29,510 nucleotides of DNA, from the IMG/VR virus record IMGVR_UViG_3300025830_000002; one strand, given 5' to 3'. Each line of letters begins with the position of its first letter. The stretch's first letter is position 1. The position numbers were made by a program, and so were the translations under genes. Source of the DNA: a virus. Positions 11,527 through 29,096 of the stretch are shown here, piece after piece. A model generated the notes under the pieces. The model was not told the DNA's origin, did not search any database, and was given only the letters and a program-made list of their open reading frames with translations.

Positions 11527-11528
11527 TA

Positions 11529-12449: not shown

Positions 12450-12950
12450 TCATAAAATCCAACCAGTAAAATTTGTACTTTCGTTTGGACTCATATCACT
12501 TCCTGTATTTGTATTGTATTCTGGAAACGTGCTACTATTGTCGCATATATAATCTACAAACCTTTCTTTGTAGTGCATATAAGTCTGTCGTTGTTTTTCT
12601 ACTAAAAAATCTATTTCTTCTTTACTTACCGTTTCTGAATTTTCTGCTCCGTGTTTATATACGCCTTTGTTTGCAATAGTTACTGCACTAAAAGGCAAGA
12701 ACTCTAACATACTTGCGTGAATTAAGGCAGGTTTTATGTAAATTTCTAATAAGTCTTTATACGGATTTGCCAAAGTTCCTGCAATTATTTCTGCTTGTAG
12801 TTTTTCAAGTAGTTTAGTTCCTAACATTGATTGAATATGTATATCTTGTGCGATCGAAACGTACTGAATAAATTTATCCGTGTCTATGTTTCCGTTCATA
12901 TTTGTGAAACGAATCGCATCTTGTCTGCTTATTAATAGTGCTTTTGCCAT
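12450..12950 (-). CDS. Hypothetical virion/head-tail connector-like protein, 166 aa
   Basis: The call rests on its position directly after the portal gene. No diagnostic motif. Confidence 0.45.
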   Translation of the reverse strand: MAKALLISRQDAIRFTNMNGNIDTDKFIQYVSIAQDIHIQSMLGTKLLEKLQAEIIAGTLANPYKDLLEIYIKPALIHASMLEFLPFSAVTIANKGVYKHGAENSETVSKEEIDFLVEKQRQTYMHYKERFVDYICDNSSTFPEYNTNTGSDMSPNESTNFTGWIL

Positions 12951-12956
12951 ATCTTG

Positions 12957-14723: not shown

Positions 14724-15066
14724 AAATAATAAATTCGTTGTTACTGACGTTTGAAGTAAATTCTCCGTCATTTACTGAATAGTTTACAACAGGCGTTTGA
14801 TCCGTTACAAAGATTCTATCCTTGTGTACTATCGTTGTTCCGTTTTTTAGTTCCAAAGTGTAAAAAGTATTGTTTACTAAATTGAATAAGCCATTAACAA
14901 AAGTTGCGTTTATTGTATCGTAGTAATCTCCATTTGCAAAACTTGTTATTGTTATTTCAGTTGTTACGTTTGTAGATTCTCCTGTGATATATAACGTGTC
15001 ATAAGTTTGGCTTCTTGGTATAAAGCTAAAACTTTGTTCTGTTGCTATCGGTTGTAAAATAATCAT
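14716..15066 (-). CDS. Hypothetical structural protein, 116 aa (beta-rich)
   Basis: The ORF is preceded by the conserved 13-mer AAAAGTTATTATA and an AAACACGAAT motif. No motif recognised in the protein. Confidence 0.5.
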   Translation of the reverse strand: MIILQPIATEQSFSFIPRSQTYDTLYITGESTNVTTEITITSFANGDYYDTINATFVNGLFNLVNNTFYTLELKNGTTIVHKDRIFVTDQTPVVNYSVNDGEFTSNVSNNEFIIYE

Positions 15067-15072
15067 ATCTAC

Positions 15073-15085
15073 TATAATAACTTTT
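15073..15085 (-). repeat. 13-mer AAAAGTTATTATA, copy 1, ending 6 nt before the ATG at 15066
   Basis: Exact 13-mer, also found at 18587..18599 and 26536..26548, each just upstream of a start codon. Confidence 0.9.
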
Positions 15086-15123
15086 TTTTAAATATTTTGT
15101 TTTTAATTCGTGTTTATGTAAAC

Positions 15124-15149
15124 AAAAAAAGGCACTCCGAAAAGTGCCT
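15124..15149 (-). terminator. Rho-independent terminator
   Basis: The minus strand reads AGGCACU-UUUCGG-AGUGCCU followed by U7, 30 nt downstream of the stop of the 190-aa gene. Confidence 0.8.
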
Positions 15150-15178
15150 CTTTGTTATGAAAGGTATAAGAAAGAATC

Positions 15179-15751
15179 TTAAGAAGTAACAATAACTGCG
15201 TCAGTTGCTCCTGCATCTGCAAAAGCCGTAGCAAGTCCTGCTTCGGTTGTTACATCAATAAAGTTAGCTGGAAGTTCTTCCATAGCCGTAAAGGTCAAAG
15301 AATATCCGTTAAAATCTCCAAGTGCTGCACCAGAAGAAATTTCTCCTGCTGAAACGTCTGCGCCTTGATCAAGACCCATTAAGAAAAATTGGTCTGTCAT
15401 TGTTCTAACAATTATTCTTGGTCTTCCGTATGCAAGAAGTTTTACGTTCTTGTGTGTAGCAAAATCTTGTCTTTTTAAAGCAGCTACTAAAGTTTGAGTG
15501 AAGAACGTCGTTCCGTTATCTCTACTGCTTTCTATGGCCGTAGTAAAAGAATTTGTTGTACTCTTCAATTCGTATTTGTATAGGCTTAAAGGTGCTGCTG
15601 GTTGCCAAGTGTCAATAACATCTCCGTTTGTGGCATCATATACAACATTGTCAGAATCCAAATCGTCGAAATTGGCGAAGTAAATCGCTTTTAATCCACT
15701 TACTGAATCTTTACATTGTTCTATACGTCCGTTTGTAATATCACAACTCAT
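15179..15751 (-). CDS. Abundant virion protein, candidate major tail (tube) protein
   Basis: 190 aa, bracketed by two strong intrinsic terminators, which suggests a highly expressed structural gene. The beta-rich sequence ...GLKAIYFANFDD... resembles tail tube proteins of Bacteroidota siphoviruses. Assignment is tentative. Confidence 0.4.
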   Translation of the reverse strand: MSCDITNGRIEQCKDSVSGLKAIYFANFDDLDSDNVVYDATNGDVIDTWQPAAPLSLYKYELKSTTNSFTTAIESSRDNGTTFFTQTLVAALKRQDFATHKNVKLLAYGRPRIIVRTMTDQFFLMGLDQGADVSAGEISSGAALGDFNGYSLTFTAMEELPANFIDVTTEAGLATAFADAGATDAVIVTS

Positions 15752-15771
15752 TTTTTTAAAGTTTTATGAAT

Positions 15772-15798
15772 AAAAAAAGGCAGGTACTTTTACCTACC
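15772..15798 (-). terminator. Rho-independent terminator after the capsid gene
   Basis: The minus strand reads GGUAGGUA-AAAG-UACCUGCC (8 bp with one G-U pair) followed by U7, 21 nt after the major capsid stop codon. Confidence 0.75.
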
Positions 15799-15818
15799 TT
15801 TCTTTAATCTGATTTATA

Positions 15819-16754
15819 TTATACTGAATAAACTACACAATCGTTAGCTATTCCTACTTGTGCGCCTACTTGCATTCTCATAACGATTCTTACATTATCA
15901 GATCCATCATATAAATGAACTGGAATTACAGAAGCTTCTTGCCAATCTGACAATAAAGACGTTCCAAAATACAAGTTAGAAGTCTGTGCTGCTACCATTG
16001 TATTATCTGCCATTCCGTTAGCAACAAAAACAGGAATACCATCGAATGACAAGCTTCCGTTTGTATACCATTGTGTACCTTTGTTGTCTGTACCATTTGC
16101 ACCAAGTCCTGCTGCTGCGAATCCTCCGAGTGCGCGCACGTAATTACGGGCGATATTGGAAGATACATACAATTTCAAATCCTCATTTCCCCACACAGTT
16201 GTAGGAACGGCTGAAATTACAGACCCCATTTCATCGATTACGTTAGCTGCCGTAGAAGCTACTGCCGTAATATCTTGTGCTGCTGGCAATCCTGCTGCGT
16301 TTAATAAAGTAACGATACCATCGTATGCGTTAGCACCTGCAACACCTGTCCACAATAAAGTTTCATTAGAAGCTGCAACTTTAGAAGCAACATATCCTAA
16401 TAAGTAATCTTCAAAAGATTTAGGAATATCTGCAAAAGCAGAAGCACCCATCTCAATTGCTGAAAACGTGTCGTGAAACTGGCTTCTACAAAGTTGTAAA
16501 TTTACTTGCATATCTTTAACAGTTAATATGCTTTCGCCCATTGTTACAGTACGTGTTTCGTCAAAATCACAAGTTGCATCTTGGAATAAGTCGTTAGTAT
16601 CAATAGTTTGTAATACTGATTTTCCTTTGACGTTTTCAAGAACGGTAACGCCACCGTTTTCAATTGTAGGCGCACTTAAAAGAGCTGCGGAAATGTATTT
16701 TCCTGCTGCTAATCCTGCATAAGTGCTACCTGGAAATGTCGGCTGATCTGCCAT
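15819..16754 (-). CDS. Major capsid protein (HK97-fold type)
   Basis: 311 aa, Ala/Gly-rich, directly downstream of the protease and scaffold genes and followed by a terminator. The call rests on position and composition. Confidence 0.7.
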   Translation of the reverse strand: MADQPTFPGSTYAGLAAGKYISAALLSAPTIENGGVTVLENVKGKSVLQTIDTNDLFQDATCDFDETRTVTMGESILTVKDMQVNLQLCRSQFHDTFSAIEMGASAFADIPKSFEDYLLGYVASKVAASNETLLWTGVAGANAYDGIVTLLNAAGLPAAQDITAVASTAANVIDEMGSVISAVPTTVWGNEDLKLYVSSNIARNYVRALGGFAAAGLGANGTDNKGTQWYTNGSLSFDGIPVFVANGMADNTMVAAQTSNLYFGTSLLSDWQEASVIPVHLYDGSDNVRIVMRMQVGAQVGIANDCVVYSV

Positions 16755-16780
16755 AATTTTTAGGTTTTAATTATTATTAT

Positions 16781-17416
16781 TTATTTATTTAATTTTTTAT
16801 AGATTCTATCTAAAGTAGTTTCTGTTCTGTTTTGTGCGTATAACATTTTTTCTCTTACTTCCTTATTTTCTGGATTGAAAGAAATTGGCTTAACTGCTGG
16901 ATCAAGTTCTTCTGTAGAAAGTTCCGTTTTTTCGTCCTCAACAACTTCTTCTGTTTCTTCAGTAGTTTCTACTTTAGAAAGGTTTTGAAGTTTTGCTTTA
17001 AGTTCTTCGTTTTCTTTTTTCAAAGTTTCGATTTCATTAAAGAAAGTTTCTTTTACGATTGATTCAACTACTTTTTTAACAGGCTTTGCTTCGTCTGCCA
17101 TTTCTTCTTCTTTTTCGTCGTAGTCTTTTTTAGCTTCTTCTTCAATTACTTCTTCTTCTTCTTCAGCTGCTTCTTCTTTGATTTCTGCGATCAAACCCTC
17201 TTCAGTAACAACTAAAATTTTAGAATCATCCATTTTGTATTCTCCGATTGGAAGTGGAATTCTTTGTTCGTCTTCTGTAATTATAACGACCTCGTTTTCT
17301 GGTGCAAATTCATCTGCTTCAATGATTGTTACACCATCTTCTAATTTACGTTGTTCAAGTTTAACTTCCATTCCAAGAAGTTCTCTTACTTTGTTTAGTA
17401 TTGCTTTATTGTTCAT
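16781..17416 (-). CDS. Scaffolding protein
   Basis: 211 aa, highly acidic (poly-E tracts EEAAEEEEEVIEEE) and helical. It sits immediately upstream of the capsid gene. Confidence 0.6.
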   Translation of the reverse strand: MNNKAILNKVRELLGMEVKLEQRKLEDGVTIIEADEFAPENEVVIITEDEQRIPLPIGEYKMDDSKILVVTEEGLIAEIKEEAAEEEEEVIEEEAKKDYDEKEEEMADEAKPVKKVVESIVKETFFNEIETLKKENEELKAKLQNLSKVETTEETEEVVEDEKTELSTEELDPAVKPISFNPENKEVREKMLYAQNRTETTLDRIYKKLNK

Positions 17417-17442
17417 AGCTTATTTAATTATTCGTGTTTATC

Positions 17443-17805
17443 TTATAATAGTTTTTTAGCATCTGCCAAATCTTTTTTAGCTGAATCAACAATAAAAAGT
17501 GCTTCTTTATATTCTTTTACGCTATCTGGCGTTAAACCTAAATCTTTTGCAGCTTTGGCGAAAGCTTTTGCCTCTTTATTTGCAGCACTTCTTATTGATT
17601 CAATATTTTTAATAGAATTTGAATAATCTTGTTTTGCCTTAAAAAATGCATTTCTTTTTTTAAAATTAGATTCCAATTCTTTATCTAAAGCGCTTATCGA
17701 TTTTTTTAAATCTGCCACACTTGCAAGTTCTACTTTTTCAGAAGCTAATTCCGTTTTTTTGTCATCTTTTGCCCAGTCAGCAAAAATCTTATTTAGTCGT
17801 TCCAT
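17443..17805 (-). CDS. Hypothetical helical head-module protein, 120 aa
   Basis: K/A/E-rich coiled-coil-like ORF between the protease and the scaffold. Confidence 0.5.
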   Translation of the reverse strand: MERLNKIFADWAKDDKKTELASEKVELASVADLKKSISALDKELESNFKKRNAFFKAKQDYSNSIKNIESIRSAANKEAKAFAKAAKDLGLTPDSVKEYKEALFIVDSAKKDLADAKKLL

Positions 17806-17847
17806 ACTATATTAACTTTATTTTAAATTGTTTGTTGCATTTTTGGA

Positions 17848-17988
17848 TTATATGTTGCCGATTCCTTGATTTCTTATAGTGCCTTTACAACACTTTGTTG
17901 AATATGTATTGTCTTCACATAAACAAGCTTTACGTGAGTTTTTAGGACTGCTTTGTGCTTGTGGCCTTTCTACTTTCTTTTTACTCAT
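17848..17988 (-). CDS. Small basic Cys-rich peptide, 46 aa (not in ORF track)
   Basis: Hand translation gives MSKKKVERPQAQSSPKNSRKACLCEDNTYSTKCCKGTIRNQGIGNI. Its ATG overlaps the protease TGA (ATGA). It occupies most of an otherwise unexplained 179-nt gap. Confidence 0.35.
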   Translation of the reverse strand: MSKKKVERPQAQSSPKNSRKACLCEDNTYSTKCCKGTIRNQGIGNI

Positions 17989-18584
17989 TTCAATAGGTCT
18001 TTTAGTTTGTTTATTGTTTCCGTTTTTTTATCGTCTTTACTCATATCGTATCTGTCTGCAAAATAACCTTCAATACTAAATCCTTTTATTTCGCCAGACT
18101 TTGCTTTGTCGTATAGTTCTTGATCGTCTATCTTTGCCGATACCATCCAAGTGCCTACAGGTACATCTAAGCCATATAAAGCCGTTTTGTCTTTCTTGCT
18201 ATCTTCTACTATCCAACTTTCAACGATTGTAACGCCATCAATTTTATTTTCGTGTTCAAAGGTTGCGTTTTTATGATTCGATTTTTTAAAGAATAATTCA
18301 CTTGCCTGTCGTACCGTGTTTTTAGAAAAGTAAATATAGTATTCGTCGCCTTTGTCGTTTCTTCTGTAAATACTTTTATCTGGAATAAGTGCAGCACCCA
18401 TTAAAATTTTCTTTTCTGCGTTAATCTCTTTTAGATATAGTTCGTGTTTTTGTTTAGAAAGTGCGATGAAGTTGGATTCAATCGCAGGAGTTTCTACTAA
18501 AGAAATTGCGTCTATTCCACTTTGTTCATCGTTTGGATCAATTATAAGTTCTACGATTTTAAATGTTTTTGATTCACTGCTCAT
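17985..18584 (-). CDS. XkdF-like prohead protease-family protein
   Basis: 199 aa. ...IDAISLVETPAIESNF..., ...FEHENKIDGVTIVESWIV..., ...GEIKGFSIEG... parallels the PBSX XkdF (Peptidase_S78_2) family. It lies in the head module. Confidence 0.6.
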   Translation of the reverse strand: MSSESKTFKIVELIIDPNDEQSGIDAISLVETPAIESNFIALSKQKHELYLKEINAEKKILMGAALIPDKSIYRRNDKGDEYYIYFSKNTVRQASELFFKKSNHKNATFEHENKIDGVTIVESWIVEDSKKDKTALYGLDVPVGTWMVSAKIDDQELYDKAKSGEIKGFSIEGYFADRYDMSKDDKKTETINKLKDLLK

Positions 18585-18586
18585 AT

Positions 18587-18599
18587 TATAATAACTTTT
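18587..18599 (-). repeat. 13-mer AAAAGTTATTATA, copy 2, ending 2 nt before the ATG at 18584
   Basis: Exact 13-mer shared with 15073..15085 and 26536..26548. Confidence 0.9.
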
Positions 18600-18605
18600 A
18601 TTTGT

Positions 18606-21098
18606 TTATAGTGTTGCATTTTGTACTCTGTTTCTGTCAAGTGCTTGGCTTGTCGTTACTTCTCCACTAACTACAAAAGCTTGTACAGGTTGTTGTTGTA
18701 ATTGTGCTATTTGATTTATTCCACTATCTCCAACAACGTTAAAATTAGGTGCTGCTGATTCGTCTATATTTGGCGTAGGTGTGTCAGCAGGATCGCCAGT
18801 TGATTCAAATTTAGTAGAAGCAATTTTCGCAATATTTACGGCAGACGTTGTAGCTGCAAACGCAAGAGATGCTATACCAGCAGGATTAGGAACAGGCCCA
18901 ATAGCAATAGGAGCAGAAGCAAGAGAAGCTGTAATTGCCTTACCTGCATCTATAATAGCACCCCCTAACTGCATCGCTTTGTTAAACTTAAATTGTTTTC
19001 TTGCAAGTTCTTCTTCTTCCTTACTTCCCTCTTCAAGTTTAGCCATTTTATTAGAAAAAACTAAATCGCCAATTTGTTGAATTGCGTCTGCACCTTGTTG
19101 CGCATATTCTAAACCTTTTTGTATTGCTTCAAGTCTTGCTTGTCTTTCGGATTCTATTAAGTCTTTTTGTTTATCTGATGCCTCTTTGTCTTTGGCCAAC
19201 TTTTCTAATCTAAATTGATCTTCTATTGCAGCTTGATCTATTAAAAATTGTGCTTCTAATTGTTTTGTAAGTTCTGCATTATCTTGTGCAAGTAAATACT
19301 TTGCTTCATAACTTTGTGACAAAGCAATTATTTCTGCCATTTGCCTGTCTTTCATTAAGTCAAGTTCTAACTGAAATAAAGCATCTTCTTTATCTATTCT
19401 TTCTTGATTTGCTTTAGCTTTTTCTTCATCAATTTTTTTGTTTTTCTCTTTTTCTAAATCAACGTACTTTTTATTAATTACTTTTTGTTGTGCAAGTTCT
19501 TGCTTGTCATAAAGGTCTTTTAACGCTGCTCTTTCTTTTGCAGTTAGCTTCGTGTTTTTCTTGGCATCCTCTTGTAGTCTTCTAAACTTGTCTCTATTGA
19601 TTTCAAGGTCTTTCTCTATTCCGTCCTTTAGTAAAGAGTTCTCAAGGTCTTCTATTTTTCTGGCAGTGTTTAATCTATCTTCTTGTTTTTGTTTTAATTT
19701 GTCTGCATTATCCTTTACTTCTTCAGCGTCAAAAATTTCTAAATCTTTTTGTAAAGATTCAACGTCACCTTTAGTAGTTGTTATCCATTTCTTAGTCTCT
19801 TTATTCCTAAATTCATTTAATCTTTTATTTGATGCTTCTAATTGTCTTTCAATCTCAAATGTATGGGTATACATATTTACACGAGCATTTCTTAAAATTT
19901 GGGATTCTACAACAGATAAATCAGACCTATCTTTTATACCCTCAGCCTCTATTTTTTGTATTACTTTTTGTGCCTTCTTTTTTGCATCTATTCTTTTTTG
20001 AATACTATCAATAGTATCTCTAGTTTCTTCTTCAAATTTATCCTTGTCGTCTTTTGCGTTTTTTTCAGCATCAGCTATTGCGTCTGTTATTATTTTTCGT
20101 TCTGCTTCTCTTGTTTCTTCACCCTTTGCTTTTGCTAAAGCAATTTCTTTTTGTGCTAATTTTCGTTTTAACTCATATTCTTTATTTAGCCTGTCTTTTT
20201 TATCATTCCATCTATCTTCGTCTGCTTTTGCTTCTTCTTCACGTCTTTTAGCATCTGCTTTTTCTTGTTCTGCATTTTTGCCCTGAGCTATACCTAATGC
20301 TTTTAGACCTTTTTGAAATACTTTAACCGTGGCGATTAAAGGAGCGAAAGAAATCATTAGTGCCTTTGTTAATAAGCCACCCTCCTTAAAGCCTTTGTTT
20401 ACATCTGTTAATACTTCTTTAACCTTGTCAAAATTTGCCACGAGTAAACCAATACCTACAACTAAAGCACCCACACCTGTACTAATAAGTGCTGCTCTAA
20501 ACAACTTTAATCCTGTTGTTGCACCACCAGTAACAAAAGTAAATGCTGCTTGTCCTGCTGCTGCCAATTTACTACCTATTGATAATTCTCTGTAAGCTTC
20601 TGTAAGACCTTGTACTCCTTGCTGTATAGCTAATGCAGATTGAACTTTTAAAAGTGATTCTTCAAGTGCTTGGTTCTCATCTCCAAACAAAGCCATAGCA
20701 CCTTGTGTAGCTGCAAAGCCACTTGTAGCACCATTTAACGCACTACCTAACTTTTGCGTCATTGTAGTCGCTGCGCCATCTACTGCTAAATCCGTTTGTA
20801 TTTGAACTTTACGATATTCTCCTACTTTGGTTAATAGTTCTTGATATTCTTGTGAAGCCGTATCTCCTGCAAGTGCTAATTCATAAAGACGATCTTCTGC
20901 TTCGCCCATTCGTGTAGTAAGTGGCTCTATGGCATCTCCATATCTTTTAGCAAATGTTGCTCCTGTATCAAACGATTCATTTACCTGCTCGTTTGCTTTT
21001 GCAGTTTCGTCTAACGAATCATTTAAATTATCAAAATCTTTTGCCGTTTTATCAGCATTGTTTTTGATGTTTACGTTTATAGTTCTTGTTTCAGCCAT
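18606..21098 (-). CDS. Tape measure-like protein
   Basis: This is the longest ORF (830 aa). Gly/Ala-rich hydrophobic segments at both ends (...LISTGVGALVVGIGLLV..., ...APIAIGPVPNPAGIASLAFAA...) flank a K/E-rich coiled coil of about 450 aa. No enzymatic motif recognised. Confidence 0.6.
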   Translation of the reverse strand: MAETRTINVNIKNNADKTAKDFDNLNDSLDETAKANEQVNESFDTGATFAKRYGDAIEPLTTRMGEAEDRLYELALAGDTASQEYQELLTKVGEYRKVQIQTDLAVDGAATTMTQKLGSALNGATSGFAATQGAMALFGDENQALEESLLKVQSALAIQQGVQGLTEAYRELSIGSKLAAAGQAAFTFVTGGATTGLKLFRAALISTGVGALVVGIGLLVANFDKVKEVLTDVNKGFKEGGLLTKALMISFAPLIATVKVFQKGLKALGIAQGKNAEQEKADAKRREEEAKADEDRWNDKKDRLNKEYELKRKLAQKEIALAKAKGEETREAERKIITDAIADAEKNAKDDKDKFEEETRDTIDSIQKRIDAKKKAQKVIQKIEAEGIKDRSDLSVVESQILRNARVNMYTHTFEIERQLEASNKRLNEFRNKETKKWITTTKGDVESLQKDLEIFDAEEVKDNADKLKQKQEDRLNTARKIEDLENSLLKDGIEKDLEINRDKFRRLQEDAKKNTKLTAKERAALKDLYDKQELAQQKVINKKYVDLEKEKNKKIDEEKAKANQERIDKEDALFQLELDLMKDRQMAEIIALSQSYEAKYLLAQDNAELTKQLEAQFLIDQAAIEDQFRLEKLAKDKEASDKQKDLIESERQARLEAIQKGLEYAQQGADAIQQIGDLVFSNKMAKLEEGSKEEEELARKQFKFNKAMQLGGAIIDAGKAITASLASAPIAIGPVPNPAGIASLAFAATTSAVNIAKIASTKFESTGDPADTPTPNIDESAAPNFNVVGDSGINQIAQLQQQPVQAFVVSGEVTTSQALDRNRVQNATL

Positions 21099-21265
21099 TT
21101 GAGTGTGTCTTTATTTCGTGTTTTTAACAAGTTCATTCTTTTCTTTTGCTTATAAATTCCTTTCACTCCTGTTTCATAACTATATAATCCTTTCGCCACT
21201 TGTACATTGTAGCTGCCATTATAAAAATCGTCTATTGCTAATAAGTCTACTATGTTTTTAATCAT
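21077..21265 (-). CDS. Hypothetical protein, 62 aa
   Basis: It has a TAATG overlap with the upstream 803-aa gene and a 22-nt overlap with the tape-measure start. It contains an AAACACGAA motif 17 nt before the tape-measure ATG. Confidence 0.35.
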   Translation of the reverse strand: MIKNIVDLLAIDDFYNGSYNVQVAKGLYSYETGVKGIYKQKKRMNLLKTRNKDTLKWLKQEL

Positions 21266-23676
21266 TACGGTTGTTGTTGGATAAATATTTGGTTGCTTGT
21301 TTGTGTTCCGTTACTGAATGTATAAGTAACAACTAAAGTGTATAGTTCAATAGTTCCCTCTTCTGTTCTTACTCGTTTAGTATCTTCCGTGTTTATGTAG
21401 TCTATATCATCTTCAGTTTTTAGTACCGTTGTAGTATTTGGATTGTCTGGAATACATACTTGAATCGTACCCTCACTTGTTAAAGTGCTTGGCGTAATCG
21501 TTACACTTGGATTGCTACAAGTTATATCTGCTTGAACTACTCCGTTAGGAAATAAGATTCTAACGTCTAAACATTGTGATACATCACTTGGAATTAATGG
21601 CTCTGTTGGACCACCTCCACCGATAGCAATAACAGGTCTAAAATCATTTATCAAAACAAAATCTACATCGCCAGTATTGAGATTAGATTTCATTGATTCT
21701 ATAATGTATCTTTTATCTCTAATAATTAGCCTGTCATTCAAACGTAATTCAGTTAATAGGCTTACAGGTAGATTCGTTTTTATGGTTGTTCTTCTATTCT
21801 TTAAATTAAACAGATTAAGTAAATATCCAGAATAATATGTTTTAAAAAGTGTATTCTGTTCAGCTATGTTTGTTAAGGTGCTTATGTCTGCATTAAAATT
21901 AAGTGTGTAGTTTTCAGTCAATACTTTTACATCTTGTCCGAAAGGAACATACTCTGTTAAAGTGCTTGTACTTGTTTCATCTGTAAATCTATAATCTTGT
22001 GCTAATTCTTCGTACTCATAAATTATCATAGGTTTAGGAACGTACTTGTTTCCATCTTGATTTATTGTTTCGCCTATTTGTAGATTCGTGCCTTGAAACT
22101 TTTGCATCATCATATTTTCAAAAGGCAATTCTACTTTAAAAGCACCACCATCATAATCAAAAGTGTTCTTCGTGTTTCCATAGCCACGACCTGTAAGATT
22201 TTTAAATATTGTATTTGTAGCACTTTCACTTTCTTGGTAGTTAAATTCTATTGTTTTAAATAATTTAAGCCTGTCTATGTTTATGCTTTTTATATCCGTG
22301 TATTTCGTGATATCTACAACTGCGCCTTTCGCATACCAATCGTCTAACGGCTCAACTTGAAACACATTTTCTGCCGTTCCATAGCAAGTTAAATTAAACA
22401 TCTTTAGAACTCCTTTAAAGAAGTCGCTTACGGTCATATCTGGAACGTAGTTAACAACACTAAAATCATTATTTACACTTACTGCTCCTGTTCCATAATA
22501 TCTATTTATAGCCGTATCAATGCCACTACCTGTGTCAATATATGTAAGTTGCTGATAAGTAATTTTAAAAGTAACTGATAAAGCATTTTGAGCCCTAAAT
22601 CTAAAACTATAATTAGTGTTAGGTGTATTTACACTACTACCCTCAATAATTTGTGTTGTTCCAGGAGATTGTGCAGTTATTGTTTGAACTACTTGGTTAT
22701 TCAATATTACATCAATATAAAATATTGTTTGTGGTGTTGCTGGATTTACAGAATTAATTTCTAAAACAACACTATATAGAAATGCAGCTTGAAGACCAGG
22801 CGTTGCTCCTGGAAATGCTTCTGAAAATGATATTTGACCAAAGCTTAATGTATCTGTACCTAAATCAAAATAATCTAAATAAGTTTTAGTTGTATTATAA
22901 TTAATAATATCCGTACTTCCACTTGTTATATCCATTAATTTAGATTCAGTTACAAAAGTAAAATCTTCTGAATTTTTACAATACAAATAAGCATTACTAA
23001 ATCTTTTATCTCCAAAAAATGTTCCACTAAACGTAACTCCGTACCTCGTTTGTATTACGTTAATTAAAGAAAGTAGTTTAATAGCTGGAAATAATTCATT
23101 GTACAAAACACTTCCTGTTCCTGTTGTTCCTATGTCTGTGCTTCCACCTGTTCCATAAGTTATATCTCTATTAAAGATTAAAGGAAACCTAACACCATAA
23201 GTAATGCTTCCATTTGTTATTCTGTCTTGAACTGCTGCGCCATCATACGCAAAATTATAAAAATCAAGTTCAGACATATCAGCCAATTTATCGTCTTGAA
23301 ATTTATCCTTAAGTGCCAATATATCTCCGTAGAAAGTAATTTGATAACTATAAGGTTGGTTGTCTTTTACTTCTGATTTTTCTAAACTTATTTTTCCACG
23401 TCTAAATGTTGTTAAGTCTATTTCTATGTATGCATCTCTTCGGATGTTGTGGTCAAAGATTGTATTGATATCTTGTAAATCGCCAATATCACTATTATAG
23501 AAATGCTTAAATATTGCATCGTTTTTAATTGAACTCGGAACACTAAAGCTTTGTGAATAGTCAGTAAATACTTTGCTAATATCTTGGATATCTTGCTGCT
23601 TACTTGTAACGCTTATTATTTCGTCTTTAAATAAATCAAGTCTTTGCCCCTCTATGTATACTTGTACAGTTCTCAT
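21265..23676 (-). CDS. Large tail structural protein (candidate tail tip/baseplate or receptor-binding component)
   Basis: 803 aa, beta-rich and Thr/Asn/Ser-rich, in the tail cluster. No diagnostic motif, so the call rests on size and context. Confidence 0.45.
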   Translation of the reverse strand: MRTVQVYIEGQRLDLFKDEIISVTSKQQDIQDISKVFTDYSQSFSVPSSIKNDAIFKHFYNSDIGDLQDINTIFDHNIRRDAYIEIDLTTFRRGKISLEKSEVKDNQPYSYQITFYGDILALKDKFQDDKLADMSELDFYNFAYDGAAVQDRITNGSITYGVRFPLIFNRDITYGTGGSTDIGTTGTGSVLYNELFPAIKLLSLINVIQTRYGVTFSGTFFGDKRFSNAYLYCKNSEDFTFVTESKLMDITSGSTDIINYNTTKTYLDYFDLGTDTLSFGQISFSEAFPGATPGLQAAFLYSVVLEINSVNPATPQTIFYIDVILNNQVVQTITAQSPGTTQIIEGSSVNTPNTNYSFRFRAQNALSVTFKITYQQLTYIDTGSGIDTAINRYYGTGAVSVNNDFSVVNYVPDMTVSDFFKGVLKMFNLTCYGTAENVFQVEPLDDWYAKGAVVDITKYTDIKSINIDRLKLFKTIEFNYQESESATNTIFKNLTGRGYGNTKNTFDYDGGAFKVELPFENMMMQKFQGTNLQIGETINQDGNKYVPKPMIIYEYEELAQDYRFTDETSTSTLTEYVPFGQDVKVLTENYTLNFNADISTLTNIAEQNTLFKTYYSGYLLNLFNLKNRRTTIKTNLPVSLLTELRLNDRLIIRDKRYIIESMKSNLNTGDVDFVLINDFRPVIAIGGGGPTEPLIPSDVSQCLDVRILFPNGVVQADITCSNPSVTITPSTLTSEGTIQVCIPDNPNTTTVLKTEDDIDYINTEDTKRVRTEEGTIELYTLVVTYTFSNGTQTSNQIFIQQQP

Positions 23677-24767
23677 TAAACTACATTGTTAATTAAATCG
23701 TAAGCAAATTCAAACTCCATCTCATAGTTAATCATTCCATCGTTTATTCCTACTTGTTTTTGAAGTGATTTAGTTTTGGCTTTTACAGGAGTGTAGTTCG
23801 TGTTTACCTCGTAATCTAATAGAAGCACCTTCTCACTCAATAACATCTGTTGTATATAATCGCCATAGTCGTCGTTAACCCATCCTGTGTTTAGCTTAAT
23901 AGTTTCTTTTGCGTTTATGTTAAACTCTTTAAATTGACCATCGCCAGACAAGTTAGGATAGTAAGGTAATGCGCTTGGATTGAATTTGTATTCATTCGTT
24001 TTTACGTTGATACTTCTTTTCTTAACTTTTTGAAAGAATATTCTTGACCAACTTCCGTAACGATTAATAAAGTCCACAACTACTGGCTGATACTTTGGCT
24101 CACATTGTGGCTTAAAGTATGCAGTCCAACGTTCTGTTACGCCACCTATTAAGATTTCTACTTTGTTACCGTTTGGTGCATAAGTTAAGTATGCTCGTGC
24201 ATAGCTTTTTACTCCATCAGTAGTTGCCGTGTCTGTAAATGTTGCACCTGTTACTAAATCAGTATATTTCACAACATCTCCTATACTTAATTCACAATCA
24301 AAACTGCCCCATAATCCATTACCTTGTGTAGTTGGTATTGTAGCATCGTAGTTGTAAAAATAAGTACCCTCATCTAAAAGTGCTATTGGTGTTGTTGCGT
24401 TGTAGCCATCCATATAGTAGTTGTAGCCATCTACAAAAGTTCCTGTTTCTGTTGTATTTAATACATACGTTCCACCTATCAAGTTATAAGACTTTACTTT
24501 ATAGTTTACTAAGTAATTTGTACTTGTGTCGATGCCATACGTTAAACCTGTCGCACTTTGCCACACGTTAAAAGTGTAGTATTCTCTTACGTAAGGACTT
24601 ATATTGTAAAAAGTTTTAGTGTTGTTAGACGCAGGAATTAATTTAGATAGTGTGTATTGTGGATTTGCTAAAAAGCCAGGTGTATTCGCCAAAAATAATT
24701 CTATTTTGCTTCCTGTTTGTGTAGCATCGTCTACCTCTATTATGTATGGACTTCGTGATAATTTCAT
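23676..24767 (-). CDS. Tail structural protein (candidate distal tail protein)
   Basis: 363 aa, beta-rich, with a 1-nt overlap with the downstream 803-aa gene. The call rests on context only. Confidence 0.4.
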   Translation of the reverse strand: MKLSRSPYIIEVDDATQTGSKIELFLANTPGFLANPQYTLSKLIPASNNTKTFYNISPYVREYYTFNVWQSATGLTYGIDTSTNYLVNYKVKSYNLIGGTYVLNTTETGTFVDGYNYYMDGYNATTPIALLDEGTYFYNYDATIPTTQGNGLWGSFDCELSIGDVVKYTDLVTGATFTDTATTDGVKSYARAYLTYAPNGNKVEILIGGVTERWTAYFKPQCEPKYQPVVVDFINRYGSWSRIFFQKVKKRSINVKTNEYKFNPSALPYYPNLSGDGQFKEFNINAKETIKLNTGWVNDDYGDYIQQMLLSEKVLLLDYEVNTNYTPVKAKTKSLQKQVGINDGMINYEMEFEFAYDLINNVV

Positions 24768-25327
24768 TTTAGTTGTTTAAAGTTTTCTTCAGTAATTTGA
24801 TTAAATAGTTTTTCCATATCAAAGCCGAACATTTCCATAAGTTCATCTGGAAGTTTATTGTAATACTTTTCAAATGGCTTTGTAAAAAACAAGCTTGGCT
24901 TTAAGCCTTTGGAATATATGCTTCTTGCTATAATATAACCCATACTCTTATGGCTCATAAATCTGCCTGTCTCTTTATCTTTCCATTGAAAGCCTTTACG
25001 CTTGGCCCATTTTGCCATAATGCCAGACATACCACCGTTTGCTTTTCCTATTAGTGAACTATTTGTTCCAAATTTATAAGGCGATTTGTTTTGTCCGTTT
25101 CCTTTGTTAGAACTTTTATTTCCTTTTACACCTTGATCTTTATAAAATCCGTATTCATCCATCTCAAAAGAAATTTGAATACTATTTTTTGATTCTTTAA
25201 CATATCCTTTTAAACTATTTGCAAGATTTCCTGTATCTCTTGGAATACCTTTTTTTGCTTCACGGATTACATTATCCTTGAAGTCATCTAATAGTTCTTG
25301 TATGTTATTAAATTCTGCCATTAACAA
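24764..25327 (-). CDS. HK97 gp10-family head-tail/tail-completion protein
   Basis: ...REAKKGIPRDTGNLANSLKGYV... matches the gp10-family signature (aP.dTG.L..Si). Confidence 0.55.
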   Translation of the reverse strand: MLMAEFNNIQELLDDFKDNVIREAKKGIPRDTGNLANSLKGYVKESKNSIQISFEMDEYGFYKDQGVKGNKSSNKGNGQNKSPYKFGTNSSLIGKANGGMSGIMAKWAKRKGFQWKDKETGRFMSHKSMGYIIARSIYSKGLKPSLFFTKPFEKYYNKLPDELMEMFGFDMEKLFNQITEENFKQLK

Positions 25328-25773
25328 ATAGTCATTGAATTGCCGATTAAAATATCACAGGTTAATGTTGCGCCTGCAAGTTTATTTTCAAACCTTTCTG
25401 TAAAAAATTCTGCCGTTGGATTGCCATCCACTTGAAAGGCATCCGTGTAAAGTGTGCCTCTTCTTAACAACTCATAAACTCTATTCAATACTGCCATCAT
25501 AGTATTTAATACATATAGTTCGTTATCGTTGCCATCAAATTTATTTGTTGTTTCGTCTTTTGATATGTCTGTGATATCCATAGCCAAAATACTTATATTG
25601 TATCTTATGACGTTTTCTTCAAACGTGGCTTGATTTACGATCAAATGCACTAAAGGAAATATTGTTTGCTTATTTAAATCAACGTCAAAGATATCGCCTT
25701 GTGTAACGGTTTTTATTAGTTCATCGTTATCGAAGTGTGTTTTTAGTTTGTCTATTATATCGAAGTAGTTCAT
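25321..25773 (-). CDS. Head-tail joining / tail-terminator-like protein (DUF3168-like)
   Basis: 150 aa. The N-terminal pattern M..fD.I..L......l...v....if........fPlv is typical of tail-completion proteins. The call rests on this and on context. Confidence 0.4.
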   Translation of the reverse strand: MNYFDIIDKLKTHFDNDELIKTVTQGDIFDVDLNKQTIFPLVHLIVNQATFEENVIRYNISILAMDITDISKDETTNKFDGNDNELYVLNTMMAVLNRVYELLRRGTLYTDAFQVDGNPTAEFFTERFENKLAGATLTCDILIGNSMTIC

Positions 25774-25775
25774 AA

Positions 25776-26045
25776 TTATTTCATTTGTCGTTTTAGTTCA
25801 CGGCTTTCAATTTCGTTTTTTTGTTTGACGAAAGATAAATATGTGAGACATTTAGTAAGTCCGTATTTTGTAACTGTGTCAAATTTTGTAAGGTCGTTGC
25901 CAGAGAGTCCATATATACTTGAATACCAACCCCATTGTTTGCCAAACTGAACTCTTTCTGAAAATTCGTTAAATCCTTCGTCTTCATCAGTTCGTTCTTC
26001 AAATAAGTTAGAGTAGCTTGTAACAATTCGCTTCCTAAACTCCAA
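25776..26045 (-). CDS. -1 frame extension of the chaperone gene (predicted 252-aa fusion: residues 1-163, then LEFRKRIV...RQMK)
   Basis: An 89-codon open frame begins exactly at the U9 run, with no ATG (the track start is a TTG inside the run). It ends 2 nt before the next gene's ATG. The sequence looks protein-like (...FGKQWGWYSSIYGLSGNDLTKFD...). Confidence 0.5.
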   Translation of the reverse strand: MEFRKRIVTSYSNLFEERTDEDEGFNEFSERVQFGKQWGWYSSIYGLSGNDLTKFDTVTKYGLTKCLTYLSFVKQKNEIESRELKRQMK

Positions 26046-26533
26046 AAAAAAACACTTGCACTTATTGCAACATCTAAAGGCGCAAACTTCATCAAGTCCT
26101 GCATATCTTCGTTTGGCTCGTATTCTATTATAGAATACTTGTCTTTGTGCTTTTCTTTTATCGGCCTAAACATTACTGCCATTGCCTTGTGATATGTACT
26201 CCAATCTTTTAAGTGATGTTCTAAATCAACATATTCTCCGAAGCTGATGTTTTCCAGATTAGGAATAAATCCAAATTCTATGTTTTTTATTTTAAAGTTT
26301 CGTATTAGTTGTGGCTTTTCACTAAACACTTCTGTAAAGTGCTTGATTAATCCGTTTAAATCTTTTAGTTTAATCTTTGCAACTTCTCCTAATTGTAAGC
26401 CACAAAATATCTGTATCATTTTATTTGCAATCAGTTCTTCGTCGTTACTCTTTTCTTTCATAGCTACAAACTCTTGATACCTTGATAGTGGTATTTCAGA
26501 TAGTGAATTTGGCAGCAGTATATCTAACTTCAT
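25793..26533 (-). CDS. Tail assembly chaperone-like protein, zero-frame product (246 aa)
   Basis: ...ISFGEYVDLEHHLKDWSTYHKAMAVMFRPI... resembles tail-assembly-chaperone families. It contains the slippery run G-UUU-UUU-UUG at codons 161-164. Confidence 0.55.
   Translation of the reverse strand: MKLDILLPNSLSEIPLSRYQEFVAMKEKSNDEELIANKMIQIFCGLQLGEVAKIKLKDLNGLIKHFTEVFSEKPQLIRNFKIKNIEFGFIPNLENISFGEYVDLEHHLKDWSTYHKAMAVMFRPIKEKHKDKYSIIEYEPNEDMQDLMKFAPLDVAISASVFFWSLGSELLQATLTYLKNELMKTKDLTNFQKEFSLANNGVGIQVYMDSLATTLQNLTQLQNTDLLNVSHIYLSSNKKTKLKAVN
26044..26052 (-). other. Slippery homopolymer (U9 on mRNA; U UUU UUU heptamer in the zero frame) for -1 frameshifting or transcriptional slippage
   Basis: The plus strand has A9 at 26044..26052. 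The zero frame reads GUU UUU UUU UGG, and the -1 frame continues UUG GAG UUU AGG.... Confidence 0.6.
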
Positions 26534-26535
26534 AA

Positions 26536-26548
26536 TATAATAACTTTT
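26536..26548 (-). repeat. 13-mer AAAAGTTATTATA, copy 3, ending 2 nt before the ATG at 26533
   Basis: Exact 13-mer shared with 15073..15085 and 18587..18599. An AAACACGAA motif (26551..26559) lies directly upstream. Confidence 0.9.
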
Positions 26549-26566
26549 TTTTCGTGTTTTTGTACT

Positions 26567-27727
26567 TTACAGAATATTATAACTTCCGTAATTCTTATTC
26601 ATTCCTAACGTTTCCATCTCGTGATAACGTACTGCATCTATTGCGTGATTGAAATTATCTACAGGTTTGTTTAAACGTTTTCCTGTCTTGTCTGTGTCCC
26701 AGCAATAACTCCTTAATTCTTTAATTAGGCTGGTGCTATTAGAAGTAACTAAATAGTTTTCACGTTGCATAACATCAATACCGTAGTTTATAGAGTCCCT
26801 GCCCTTTGTTACTCCTTTTATTGTTATGCCATACCGTTGTATATCTGCTATACTTTTTGGCTCTGCTGAATCTGCATAACACGGCACGTTGCTTGGAAGT
26901 ATTTTTGCTATGTCGCTATTTAATAATCCTGTTTGATAGGTTACTTCGTTTAGTATTCGTGTTTCGTTATGTTTGTACACTTCAATAATACTTGTAGGGT
27001 CGTTTGTATATCCAAAGTCAATTCCTATGCCTATCAATCTTGCTTCGTCTGGTATTGTATCAATCTGTTTCCAATTACTAAATACAACGCCCTCTAATTG
27101 CCCCATCTCGCCATCTACATAAACACGTACCCAGTTCTTCCAATAGTTGCTTGTAGCTGCTTTCTTTATGTTCTTTTCTATCTGGCTTATGATTCCGTTA
27201 TCAAGTGCTTCGTTGTCTTTGTAAGTAAGTATTATCTTTTCTGCATCTTCTTGGTCTTCTATTTCTGTTTGTACCCAAAATTCAGCAGTTGGATTGTAAT
27301 CAAGAAATACTTCGTTTTTTGTACGTATTGAAAGTTCGTTGTAAGATTCAAAGCTTACACTATTGCACTCGTTTATGTAAAGTATTGTACGTCTACCACC
27401 ACGAAGTTTACTTGAATCGTCTGCACTAAAAAATTCTATAAAACTGCCGTTTGCAAATTCGTATTTTAGTAGTGACTTGTTAAATCTGTCATCTACAAAC
27501 CTGTTGATAGATTTCATAATCTTTACAAAATCTCTTAAAGCACCTCTTCTCAAGTGTGGAATAGATTCAGATACAACGCTTATTTCTGTGTTAGGTGTTT
27601 TGGCTGCACGGTCTATTAAGATAGGAAGTATGCCGTATGTCTTTCCTGCTGATGTTCCACCTTGAACTATCTTAATCCGTTTTTTTAACGCAAGTATTTT
27701 ATTTATTGCCGTTGTTCTTTGAAACAT
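26567..27727 (-). CDS. terL: Terminase large subunit
   Basis: 386 aa with Walker A VQGGTSAGKTYG, a Walker B-like ...RTILYINE..., and a C-terminal RNaseH-like nuclease region (...GIGIDFGYTNDPT..., ...YADSAEP..., ...HAIDAVRY...). Confidence 0.88.
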   Translation of the reverse strand: MFQRTTAINKILALKKRIKIVQGGTSAGKTYGILPILIDRAAKTPNTEISVVSESIPHLRRGALRDFVKIMKSINRFVDDRFNKSLLKYEFANGSFIEFFSADDSSKLRGGRRTILYINECNSVSFESYNELSIRTKNEVFLDYNPTAEFWVQTEIEDQEDAEKIILTYKDNEALDNGIISQIEKNIKKAATSNYWKNWVRVYVDGEMGQLEGVVFSNWKQIDTIPDEARLIGIGIDFGYTNDPTSIIEVYKHNETRILNEVTYQTGLLNSDIAKILPSNVPCYADSAEPKSIADIQRYGITIKGVTKGRDSINYGIDVMQRENYLVTSNSTSLIKELRSYCWDTDKTGKRLNKPVDNFNHAIDAVRYHEMETLGMNKNYGSYNIL

Positions 27728-28130
27728 CTGGAAAAAGTGGTTGCTCTATATTCGTTTGTTCTATCTGTTCTTTTAGGCTATTTAATCGTGCAGTAATGCT
27801 TGGATTGTATTGGCCTACCATACCACCTTTGATTTGATCGTCGCGTATTTCTTTGCGTATACGTGTAGAGATAGTACAGAAATCTTCGTATCTCTTTTCT
27901 GTATTCTCTAAATAATGCTTTGCCGTGAAGTTAAATTTCTTGTGACAGTATAGTTCAAAGCCCTCTATTGTTAGTGGAACTTCTAATGGTTCTCCTACCA
28001 TATCTCCTGTTCTTTGGTTTAGGTGATATTTAAATCTTGGATTCGTTTTTGTGTAGGTTTTGTATGCGTCAAAAATGTCTTCTAATTCTTGTGCGTCTTT
28101 TAGTGATTTAGGTCTTCCTTTTTTTGCCAT
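27699..28130 (-). CDS. terS: Terminase small subunit
   Basis: 143 aa. MAKKGRPKS..., ...PLTIEGFELYC... and a C-terminal ...GGMVGQYNPSITARLNSLKE... resemble Terminase_2-type small subunits. It overlaps the terL start. Confidence 0.65.
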   Translation of the reverse strand: MAKKGRPKSLKDAQELEDIFDAYKTYTKTNPRFKYHLNQRTGDMVGEPLEVPLTIEGFELYCHKKFNFTAKHYLENTEKRYEDFCTISTRIRKEIRDDQIKGGMVGQYNPSITARLNSLKEQIEQTNIEQPLFPDVSKNNGNK

Positions 28131-28134: not shown

Positions 28135-28566
28135 TTAATCTTCGTAAGTTTCGTATACTTTTTTAATTCTGTTGTTTATATCTCTTAAACAACTTGCACA
28201 CGTTGTATATTGTTGTTTAGTTCTGAATACTCTATTGTAAATTACTAATAAATCACGTTGTTCACTTGGCTTCATTCTATTGCTATCTTTTGAAAACCAT
28301 TCTTTTAAATATTCGTATTCGTCTTTTTGTAGGCACTCGGCTTTAAATCTTCTTGGAAATAATGCGTTTAATTTTTCTTTACGTTCTTCACATCCACAGT
28401 CATCTCCTGCCAACCATTTAATAGCTTTCTTTATTCCTGTCGCTTCTGTTACCTTTTCGATAACGTCGCCTAAACCCTCAACAGGTTGCTGCTTCTTCCA
28501 GTCTTTGTATTCTTTAGATCGTTTATCTAATCCTAAATAATATTCTTCGTTTTTTTCCATAATCAA
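28135..28566 (-). CDS. Hypothetical Cys-containing protein, 143 aa
   Basis: Contains ...GLGDVIEKVTEATGIKKAIKWLAGDDCGCEERKEKLNALFP... and ...CASC.... I cannot assign a family. Confidence 0.5.
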   Translation of the reverse strand: MIMEKNEEYYLGLDKRSKEYKDWKKQQPVEGLGDVIEKVTEATGIKKAIKWLAGDDCGCEERKEKLNALFPRRFKAECLQKDEYEYLKEWFSKDSNRMKPSEQRDLLVIYNRVFRTKQQYTTCASCLRDINNRIKKVYETYED

Positions 28567-29096
28567 ATTAATTCGTAATCTTCGTTTTTATAGTCTTCGT
28601 AATCTTCATTCAGATTTTCTTTTAGTTTTCCTTTGCAGTATTTTATTGTTTGAAATATACTACTTGTACTTATTCGTGTTTCATCAGCAAGTTCACGCAT
28701 TGACATACCACTATCAAAATAGTGTTTAAATAACATCTCATCGTACCAATGCCACGTTTCTGCTTCTTCTTTTACTCGTTTAATTAAACCACTAAAGGCT
28801 TCTTCTTTTGAAATATAATCATAAGTTACGCCAATATCTTTACGTTCTTCTATATTAACCATCTGGTGCTTGTTTCGTTCCTTTGTCAAATCTTTAAATA
28901 TGTTTCTTAAAGTAAAGTGTATGTATGCACGGTTAAGTGTTCCGTTTTTTTGTATAACCTTTTCCCTGTCTGCATACTTGTGTAATCTTATGTACATTTC
29001 TTGAACTATATCTTCTGCGTAGAAGTCTTCTCCGTAGCTTTGTACGATTCTTAAATAGTCAGCGTGAAATTTAGCAACTTCTTTTAACCAGTTCAT
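28563..29096 (-). CDS. Sigma-70 family (ECF-like, regions 2 and 4 only) RNA polymerase sigma factor candidate
   Basis: 177 aa. ...AEDIVQEMYIRLHKY...NRAYIHFTLRNIFKDLTK... is region-2-like. The C-terminal HTH ...MSMRELADETRISTSSIFQTIKYCKGKLKENL is region-4.2-like. Confidence 0.55.
   Translation of the reverse strand: MNWLKEVAKFHADYLRIVQSYGEDFYAEDIVQEMYIRLHKYADREKVIQKNGTLNRAYIHFTLRNIFKDLTKERNKHQMVNIEERKDIGVTYDYISKEEAFSGLIKRVKEEAETWHWYDEMLFKHYFDSGMSMRELADETRISTSSIFQTIKYCKGKLKENLNEDYEDYKNEDYELI

Follow-up and report, generated by a model that had tools for sequence, protein, structure and literature searches.

The 29,510-nucleotide (nt) viral sequence IMGVR_UViG_3300025830_000002 (the window, by which the whole of this stretch of DNA is meant) carries on its minus strand, directly after the large terminase gene terL, a gene that is probably decoded with a conserved, programmed -1 change of reading frame, yielding two products with the same front and different back halves. 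The putative shift site is a run of nine T residues (T9; U9 in the mRNA and A9 on the plus strand) at 26044..26052, beyond which about 250 nt are truly dual-coding. An initial annotation, made from the letters of the window alone, had proposed this combination of a slippery U-run, some 250 nt of dual coding and two products, and the comparative data strongly confirm it. The layout is kept over a very large, mostly uncultured family of marine phages, and this argues for a real, previously unannotated programmed frameshift. The host range of the family comprises Flavobacteriia and related hosts.

The zero-frame open reading frame (ORF) occupies 26533..25793 (minus strand, as do the other parts of this gene described below), from an ATG at 26533 to a stop at 25795-25793, and its product under standard decoding has 246 amino acids (aa). 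Codons 1-163 (26045..26533) encode an N-terminal domain that is present in both products. The T9 run covers codons 161-164, which read GTT TTT TTT TGG, and places a U_UUU_UUU heptamer in phase with the zero frame, from codon 161 position 3 to codon 163 position 3 (26051..26045). The zero-frame tail (25793..26044) begins WSLGSELLQATLTYLKNEL, extends over codons 164-246 (83 codons) plus the stop, and is dual-coded with the -1 tail (25776..26045), which consists of 89 codons and a stop at 25778-25776 and reads LEFRKRIV...KQWGWYSSIY.... The predicted products are thus 246 aa in the zero frame and 163 + 89 = 252 aa with the -1 tail. The fusion would be joined after the slip at codon 163 as ..SASVFF-LEFRK.., with the junction peptide SASVFFLEFR; further peptides are VQFGK and QWGWYSSIYGLSGNDLTK from the -1 tail and SASVFFWSLGSELLQATLTYLK from the zero-frame tail. 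The coordinates and lengths originally given (T9, both stops, 83 and 89 codons, 246 and 252 aa) are all correct, and so is the remark that the zero-frame product does not end soon after the slip site, since it continues for 83 codons here and for 51-90 in most relatives.

Conservation of the shift site and of both frames

Full-length homologues of the zero-frame protein number 3745 at E<=1e-3, a second search gave 1637 that each represent a 50%-identity cluster, and 430 viral contigs encode a relative. The site was followed through a set of 114 distinct homologous DNA sequences of 27-100% protein identity, whose more distant members, reaching 27% identity, were gathered by three additional scans and by individual look-ups and share the layout; a scan with P0275 as the query yielded no further loci. 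The run is T9 in 106 of these sequences, T10 in two, T11 in one, T8 in one, T6 in one and T4 in three. The frame is broken in the lone T8 sequence, and the three T4 sequences are heptamer variants. Among the 80 best of the 430 contigs (65-100% identity), T9 is found in 79 and T10 in one, and where these contigs are long enough to judge, the zero-frame tail has 83-88 codons and the -1 tail 89-91. T9 persists to 27-35% protein identity and in the cultured Nonlabens phages P12024L and P12024S. It sits in two codon phases (phase 2 in 87 sequences, phase 3 in 22), shifted by 2 nt with its length unchanged, and both T9 classes contain U_UUU_UUU in the zero-frame phase.

Both frames are open across the family, so that the refuting case named at the outset, of homologues with one open frame, is not what is seen. 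The -1 tail is open in every homologue down to 27% identity, with about 80-96 codons, and the zero-frame tail is long (51-90 codons) in nearly all homologues and stop-free in all close ones. The third frame, by contrast, is interrupted over this stretch by 10 stops in the window gene and by 7-13 in the 72 distinct closest homologues. Off-frames had been described as rich in stops, and in the 163 codons upstream the two off-frames indeed average 12.8 and 22. The expectation for chance was obtained by fixing the protein of one frame and redrawing codons from the genome's own usage in 2000 trials. With the -1 protein fixed there were on average 6.8 zero-frame stops, and in the reciprocal resampling, with the zero-frame protein fixed, 6.9; in each direction 0 of 2000 trials were stop-free, giving P<0.0005 for a chance stop-free state of either frame.

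Access to the -1 tail appears to be confined to the run. In L001, of identical sequence, only 63 nt of open -1 frame precede the slip position, and the run is the sole slippery element within this stretch. In several relatives a -1-frame stop stands directly before the run, for example ..GCTAGTG-T9, and there the frame change must occur on the run itself. No ATG occurs between the upstream -1-frame stop and a point 90 nt beyond the run in 89 of 92 sequences, and many of the 92 have no ATG, GTG or TTG in that interval at all, so that the -1 ORF can be reached only by a frame change. It is very improbable that the -1 ORF initiates by itself as a separate overlapping gene, or that the run is a phase-variation switch at the DNA level. 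A TTG start at 26045 is called in the ORF listing, the P12024L record annotates the tail as a separate gene (gp41), and homopolymers are able to phase-vary; however, the TTG is merely the end of the run, independent initiation is ruled out by the missing start codons, and a T9 consensus in 93% of distinct sequences means that populations are not divided between run lengths.

A sequencing or assembly indel in the homopolymer, which would leave a real gene with a single frame, was a concern of the initial annotation. Homopolymers are error-prone and T8 and T10 versions are present in databases, but the probability of this explanation is close to nil. T9 is found in more than 100 independent contigs from many samples, by which an assembly indel is ruled out; it is present in all of about 20 contigs at least 91% identical that come from different metagenomes, and in all three contigs binned with a Flavobacteriaceae metagenome-assembled genome (two of them 29.6 and 30.7 kb long), which are at least 93% identical to the window protein. 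The traced T8 and T10 versions are single contigs, the carriers of in-frame fusions are low-coverage or long-read-like with other genes broken, and selection acts on both frames.

Natural in-frame fusions (P0182, P0335 and P0357) were considered as proof of a fusion product and rejected. They owe their continuity to a T10 or to a nearby extra A, and their contigs (L081, L134 and L135) also have a split terL or a split frameshift gene, which points to sequencing errors and suggests low-coverage or long-read assemblies with homopolymer errors. An apparent short form, P0249, was traced to a T8 version of the standard layout; at the protein level P0313 ends ..FFII like P0249, and P0369, a single contig, has a deletion spanning the site. 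Six uncultured-phage proteins of 226-267 aa in BFVD (A0A516L5A8, A0A6J5N0W0, A0A6J7WDG4, A0A6J5SVK3, A0A6J5MY57 and A0A6J5N3F3) match both the model of the N-domain and that of the -1 tail. On the strength of these models, they could be genuine in-frame fusions of N-domain and tail in distant lineages.

Among 50,697 phage records searched with tblastn, only the Nonlabens (Persicivirga) phages P12024L and P12024S matched. These have siphovirus morphology. In P12024L (L090, NC_018272; 9001-9695) terL is followed by gp40 (175 aa), in which T9 occupies the corresponding position; its zero frame ends 27 codons past the site, and its -1 frame continues for 84 codons and contains the motif KWGWY described below. 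The distal part of this -1 frame is annotated in the record as a separate 55-aa gene, gp41. To judge from the sequence, gp40 and gp41 are two halves of one frameshifted gene, and their separate annotation means that the frameshift has gone unannotated even in isolates. Beyond the zero-frame stop of P12024L, a remnant of the zero-tail motif, NGDGI, is readable across two stops, which suggests that the zero tail decayed recently or that the record contains errors. With their classic short-G layout, P12024L and P12024S offer an experimental system. More generally, current annotation misses the signal in thousands of marine and freshwater phage contigs as well as in P12024L and P12024S, where the -1 tail is either left without annotation or entered as a small hypothetical gene of its own. 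Once the signal is recognised, gene models across the phage lineage can be corrected, and the proteome gains a conserved KWGWY domain.

Selection on the two tails

Codon-position entropy has the ordinary coding pattern upstream of the run (0.37/0.19/1.04 over the N-domain). Downstream it is 0.38/0.75/0.57 in zero-frame numbering, which is 0.57/0.38/0.75 in -1 numbering, and this pattern shows that the stronger protein constraint is carried by the -1 frame. In divergent pairs, the ratio of nonsynonymous to synonymous divergence (pN/pS) rises from 0.16 over the N-domain through 0.43 over the -1 tail and 0.83 over the zero-frame tail to 1.06 in the third frame. Synonymous divergence of the -1 frame is 0.79 over the N-domain and drops to 0.48 over the tail. 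The effect of the overlap was examined in three independent clades in which the zero-frame ORF ends 25-35 codons before the -1 ORF: here the -1-frame pS is 0.34, 0.43 and 0.37 inside the overlap and 0.43, 0.58 and 0.52 beyond it. Suppression of synonymous variation, suggested at the outset as a check, is thus seen where the zero frame overlaps.

The -1 tail has invariant residues F34, W38, G39, W40, S43 and Y45 in 55 sequences (KQWGWYSSIY in the window; motif KWGWY). In the zero frame, the first 20 or so residues past the site, VFF[WY]xLxxELLxxxxxYL, are conserved family-wide. These patterns indicate that both frames are selected, the -1 tail strongly and the zero-frame tail weakly but kept open. 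Of the claim that the gene has two alternative C-terminal domains, the existence of two tails holds up, but the implied symmetry does not: the -1 tail is better conserved, and the zero-frame tail is weakly constrained, variable and lost in P12024L.

Several observations weigh against a functional zero-frame tail. Its amino-acid constraint is weak (pN/pS 0.83), its length is spread over 51-90 codons, it is cut to 25-27 codons in P12024L (27) and L089 (about 25), and its best motif, NG[DV]GI, consists of the KWGWY nucleotides read one base later, that is, a shadow of the -1 motif. It could therefore be proposed that only the protein with the -1 tail matters, and that the zero-frame tail is stop-free for reasons of expression and is not a functional domain: most ribosomes would translate up to the start of the next gene, maintaining coupling and avoiding polarity and mRNA decay. 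In the window clade the two frames do end within 17 nt of each other and at most 20 nt from the next ATG. In other clades, however, the zero frame ends 75-100 nt ahead of the -1 frame, so that coupling is not general. Moreover, the first 20 or so zero-frame residues are not only conserved but also modelled as a confident helix, and the synonymous suppression of 25-40% seems too great to come from the avoidance of stops alone, of which 83 resampled codons contain about 6.8. An explanation by expression alone is accordingly rather unlikely.

Ribosomal or transcriptional slippage

In the proposed mechanism, standard translation would give the 246-aa protein and a -1 shift on U9 the 252-aa protein, made of residues 1-163 and the 89-aa tail. 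Two tRNA-Phe on codons 162-163 would re-pair one base back on U_UUU_UUU, and decoding would then resume at UUG GAG UUU AGG (..VFF-LEFRK..). RNA-polymerase slippage on the 9-nt run, producing U10 transcripts, would yield an identical 252-aa protein and may contribute. That the shift takes place, its efficiency, the choice between ribosome and polymerase, and a function in tail assembly are all inferred. The chance that ribosomal slippage is the main route seems slightly better than even. On sequence grounds a ribosomal shift is judged somewhat likelier as the family-wide mechanism, with polymerase slippage as a non-exclusive contributor in the T9 lineages.

The window site contains a heptamer of the form X_XXY_YYZ in the zero-frame phase, and support for its use comes from relatives that lack T9 (L125, L133, L123 and L132). 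The first three have a canonical in-phase heptamer at the aligned codons, A_AAT_TTT in L125 (53% guanine plus cytosine, GC) and L133 and G_GGT_TTT in L123 (GC 43%), and both tails are still open. The replacement of T9 by in-phase heptamers in GC-richer relatives favours ribosomal -1 slippage on U_UUU_UUU. Furthermore, a run of four T is far below the nine A/T at which polymerase slippage is efficient (PMC5009743), which also counts for the ribosome in the heptamer relatives. In L132 (490-1140), which is AT-rich (GC 32%), the run is broken to T6 (GTT TTT TCT) without a canonical heptamer and both tails are intact; slippage may here involve a single tRNA (on U_UUU), or the signal may have weakened recently.

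Other features of the site weigh against a purely ribosomal reading. A stimulatory RNA structure was not found: minimum free energies for the 60 nt past the run in 30 lineages were no better than those of shuffled sequences (z -1.4 to +1.8), with no common downstream fold. Such a structure is not obligatory, and lambda G/GT is not known to have a strong one either. The length of the run is held at exactly nine in both codon phases though seven would serve the ribosome. Efficient slippage by bacterial RNA polymerase has been shown at runs of nine A/T, a length that matches the 9-10 bp RNA:DNA hybrid (PMC5009743), and a homopolymeric run of about nine or more is what the family has (T9 in 106 of 114 sequences, T10-T11 in three). 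The strict length in two codon phases therefore keeps polymerase slippage a live, non-exclusive alternative, and the original caveat that a U9 run could equally support it was apt.

As the main route, polymerase slippage is a substantial possibility, though one to which we give clearly less than an even chance. By this explanation, stuttering on the A9 template would produce U10 as well as U8, U11, U12 and longer transcripts, and hence the 252-aa fusion, a truncated form of about 165 aa ending at a conserved third-frame TAG or TAA, and a zero-frame form with one extra Phe. In the window, a TAG in the third (+1) frame at 26035..26037, two codons past the run, would end U8 or U11 transcripts at 165-166 aa, and in most relatives the +1 frame is shut within about five codons of the run. 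Runs of at least nine are otherwise avoided in the mRNA-sense strand of the window: A runs of this length number 0 against about 5.8 expected under a first-order Markov model, and the only runs of at least nine are the U9 of the shift site and another at 4848-4856. The latter (also A9 on the plus strand) is intergenic, between the minus-strand ORFs 4263-4835 and 4940-5305. Nine A/T is the documented threshold for efficient slippage and is productive in Thermus dnaX and Shigella mxiE (PMC5009743; references in PMC3711429). Against this stand the four-T relatives, which keep both tails with canonical in-phase heptamers, so that the family is able to do without a long run. The two extra T residues are also possibly forced by coding, since codon 161 is V, L or I (xTT), codon 164 is W, Y, C or S (Txx) and the -1 frame has L or F there, and the nine-A/T threshold comes from bacteria other than Flavobacteriia.

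It is tempting to speculate that the signal switches mechanism with base composition, so that AT-rich lineages use the polymerase on T9 and make three products, namely the N-domain with either tail and an N-domain truncated at the conserved third-frame stop, while GC-richer lineages use ribosomal heptamers, that some 250 nt encode two selected proteins, and that the family forms a new, non-homologous class of tail assembly chaperones beside the terminase; as a whole this is doubtful. The only well-known parallel for a composition-dependent switch that we are aware of is dnaX. In this gene Escherichia coli uses a ribosomal -1 shift on A_AAA_AAG and Thermus thermophilus polymerase slippage on a 9-nt run (Larsen et al. 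2000; PMC5009743). As in dnaX, the homologues studied here appear to use different sites (T9 in AT-rich lineages, A_AAT_TTT or G_GGT_TTT in GC-richer ones), and a run of nine is slippage-prone; unlike in dnaX, whose alternative frames end immediately and yield a truncated protein, the -1 frame here encodes a conserved domain of about 90 aa. Slippage on about nine T or A has also been described for Shigella mxiE and other type III secretion genes (Penno et al. 2005, 2006, cited in PMC3711429 and PMC5009743). The mxiE gene shares a 9-nt T run within coding sequence and an extended fusion product (predicted in the present case), but it encodes a cellular regulator and its ORFs overlap briefly, whereas the gene described here is a phage gene with a putative assembly role. 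Retroviral gag-pol (U_UUU_UUA) is similar in its U-rich heptamer and in about 200 nt with both frames coding, but belongs to eukaryotic viruses and has a stimulatory RNA structure and unrelated proteins. The family, in which a single site exists in over 100 natural versions (T9 in two phases, T10/T11, A_AAU_UUU and G_GGU_UUU), offers a comparative system for separating ribosomal from polymerase slippage in Bacteroidota. Translation initiation in this phylum makes little use of Shine-Dalgarno pairing, and we know of no frameshift signals in Bacteroidota that have been characterised experimentally.

Possible role of the protein pair and its genomic setting

The large terminase subunit (terL, 26567..27727; PF04466, PF17288 and terminase large-subunit PHROGs) lies directly upstream of the frameshift gene and is itself preceded by terS (27699-28130). 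Downstream, a 150-aa gene (25321..25773) has its ATG 3 nt past the -1 stop and 20 nt past the zero-frame stop. A tape-measure-like protein of 830 aa is encoded at 18606..21098; it matches phrog_9483 and phrog_1538 'tail length tape measure protein' (E 2e-8 and 4e-7) and has hydrophobic segments and a long charged helical region. The initial annotation had placed the frameshift gene right after terL and about 5 kb from the tape-measure-like gene, which the measured distance of 4.7 kb bears out. Four genes lie between the two, encoding proteins of 150, 187, 363 and 803 aa, for which Pfam and PDB sequence searches gave nothing usable; the 187-aa protein has a sub-threshold HK97-gp10-like match (E 0.054). 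A conserved block of proteins of about 150, 190, 360-475 and 750-800 aa, headed by the frameshift gene, is also found in L089, L125 and P12024L, and in the window it ends at the tape-measure-like gene. The order terL, frameshift gene recurs in L081, L087 and P12024L, while in L125 two small ORFs stand between them.

In an AlphaFold2 model of the zero-frame product built with 65 homologues, the mean predicted local distance difference test score (pLDDT) is 84.7 and exceeds 90 for residues 1-170. The N-domain is an alpha/beta fold, the shift site falls inside a long helix (153-192), and the zero-frame tail is helical with falling confidence. Modelled alone, the -1 tail has three or four helices after an acidic linker (pLDDT 72). 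No Pfam family matched the protein at E<=0.01, Phage_TAC_7 giving a sub-threshold match in 1 of 18 members (E 0.15), and PDB sequence-profile searches returned no matches. Among PHROGs, phrog_32199 (function unknown) is matched by all members, through the N-domain, and phrog_166 'tail protein' weakly by 2 of 18 (E 0.003). Foldseek found no fold match for the full-length model in the PDB (best E 0.4). The matches of this model in BFVD were limited to uncharacterised phage proteins, among them ones from Nonlabens phage P12024S and Flavobacterium phage 6H, and chaperone-annotated entries came no better than E 0.15 and 0.54. The -1 tail model likewise matched only uncharacterised phage proteins in BFVD, some of them 226-267 aa long and matching the N-domain as well. 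The claimed resemblance of the N-terminal part to tail assembly chaperones is therefore not upheld, as these weak matches come with no homology in Pfam, in sequence or in PDB fold.

A chaperone-like function is nevertheless conceivable, with a likelihood that we put a little short of even; the case for it is one of analogy, drawn from the architecture of the frameshift and from the position of the gene within a tail-like block, and not one of homology. The N-domain, the family-wide -1 tail (a helical KWGWY module) and the lineage-variable zero-frame tail would act as a pair of assembly factors in a fixed ratio, analogous to lambda gpG/gpGT, for which a zero-frame overlap of about 250 nt would be unusual. 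The shared N-terminal part with a longer, frameshifted product is present by comparative inference. Several points weigh against a chaperone role: the gene has no detectable sequence or fold homology to any tail-assembly-chaperone family, neither Phage_TAC_* nor Phage_tail_T nor solved chaperone structures being similar; it stands after terL, far from the tape-measure-like gene, and not between the major tail protein and tape-measure genes; and in the window, unlike in P12024L and L089, its zero frame runs well past the shift site before it stops.

The pair might instead belong to the virion or to the head-tail joint, or serve some other step of assembly or packaging, in two versions that differ at the C terminus, a reading that we regard as a serious one at somewhat under an even chance. 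Such a non-chaperone pair has a precedent in some Gram-positive phages, whose major capsid or tail proteins are frameshifted. In most of the loci examined the gene keeps its place right behind terL; it also precedes the weakly HK97-gp10-like protein and has no homology to chaperone families. In addition, the N-domain is an alpha/beta fold of 163 aa, larger than typical gpG-like proteins. On the other side, no other candidate for a frameshifted chaperone pair, beside the tape-measure-like gene or elsewhere, was noted in this genome, which has a tape-measure-like protein, and the shared N-domain with a -1 extension and a short zero-frame form in P12024L is the gpG/gpGT pattern (PMC5009743).

The frameshift in tail-assembly-chaperone genes is conserved in long-tailed phages (Levin 1993; Xu, Hendrix and Duda 2004, 2013, 2014, as summarised in PMC5009743). 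As in lambda gpG/gpGT, one gene would give two products that begin alike, of which the longer depends on a -1 shift; a strong stimulatory RNA structure is likewise missing, and the phage has a tape-measure-like protein; P12024L, with its 27-codon zero frame, even shows the classic gpG/gpGT layout. The differences from lambda are that there is no detectable sequence or fold homology, the gene follows terL at 4.7 kb from the tape-measure-like gene, and the shift site is U9 and not G_GGA_AAG. The zero frame continues for 51-90 codons (an overlap of 150-270 nt) with selection on both frames, in contrast to the short overlap of chaperone genes. In SEA-PHAGES chaperones the stop follows the slip site at a mean of 26 nt (PMC10274946). 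A parallel in the shift site itself is a T-run in a tail-assembly gene of phage P2, the role in tail assembly being assigned here by analogy. The E/E+E' tail chaperone of P2 (Pfam Phage_TAC_7), said to have been described by Christie et al. in 2002, reportedly uses a -1 shift on T_TTT_TTG. However, P2 E lies directly before the tape-measure gene with a short overlap, and the match of the present family to this Pfam entry is the sub-threshold one given above.

A programmed -1 frameshift in a phage assembly gene is thus already well known as a kind. What is new is a family with no detectable relation to known chaperones, located beside terL, with a long selected overlap and a strict 9-nt run that is swapped for heptamers in GC-richer lineages; searches of the accessible literature found no description of this frameshift gene. 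As an example of long dual coding in a double-stranded DNA phage, the 250-nt stretch is a clean one. If the pair is a tail chaperone, the G/GT principle would survive complete sequence turnover and gene relocation.

The order of the minus-strand module at 10678-28130 is itself unusual: terS, terL, the frameshift gene, the genes for the 150-, 187-, 363-, 803- and 830-aa (tape-measure-like) proteins, and then the head genes, namely a protease, a scaffold-like protein, a 311-aa capsid-like protein and the portal (12957-14771), followed by DUF6712, a 285-aa protein, a 282-aa LamG-domain protein, holin and endolysin. A tail-like block thus separates terL from the head genes, and 12 kb lie between terL and the portal. 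A 116-aa ORF (14716-15066) overlaps the start of the annotated portal ORF by 56 nt; the portal PHROG match starts at residue 22, which makes a later portal start the simpler reading. Two genes upstream of terS lies a sigma-factor-like 177-aa gene (28563-29096; phrog_1740, E 3e-6), and in P12024L a Sigma-70 region 2 protein is encoded in a similar position, three genes upstream of terL.

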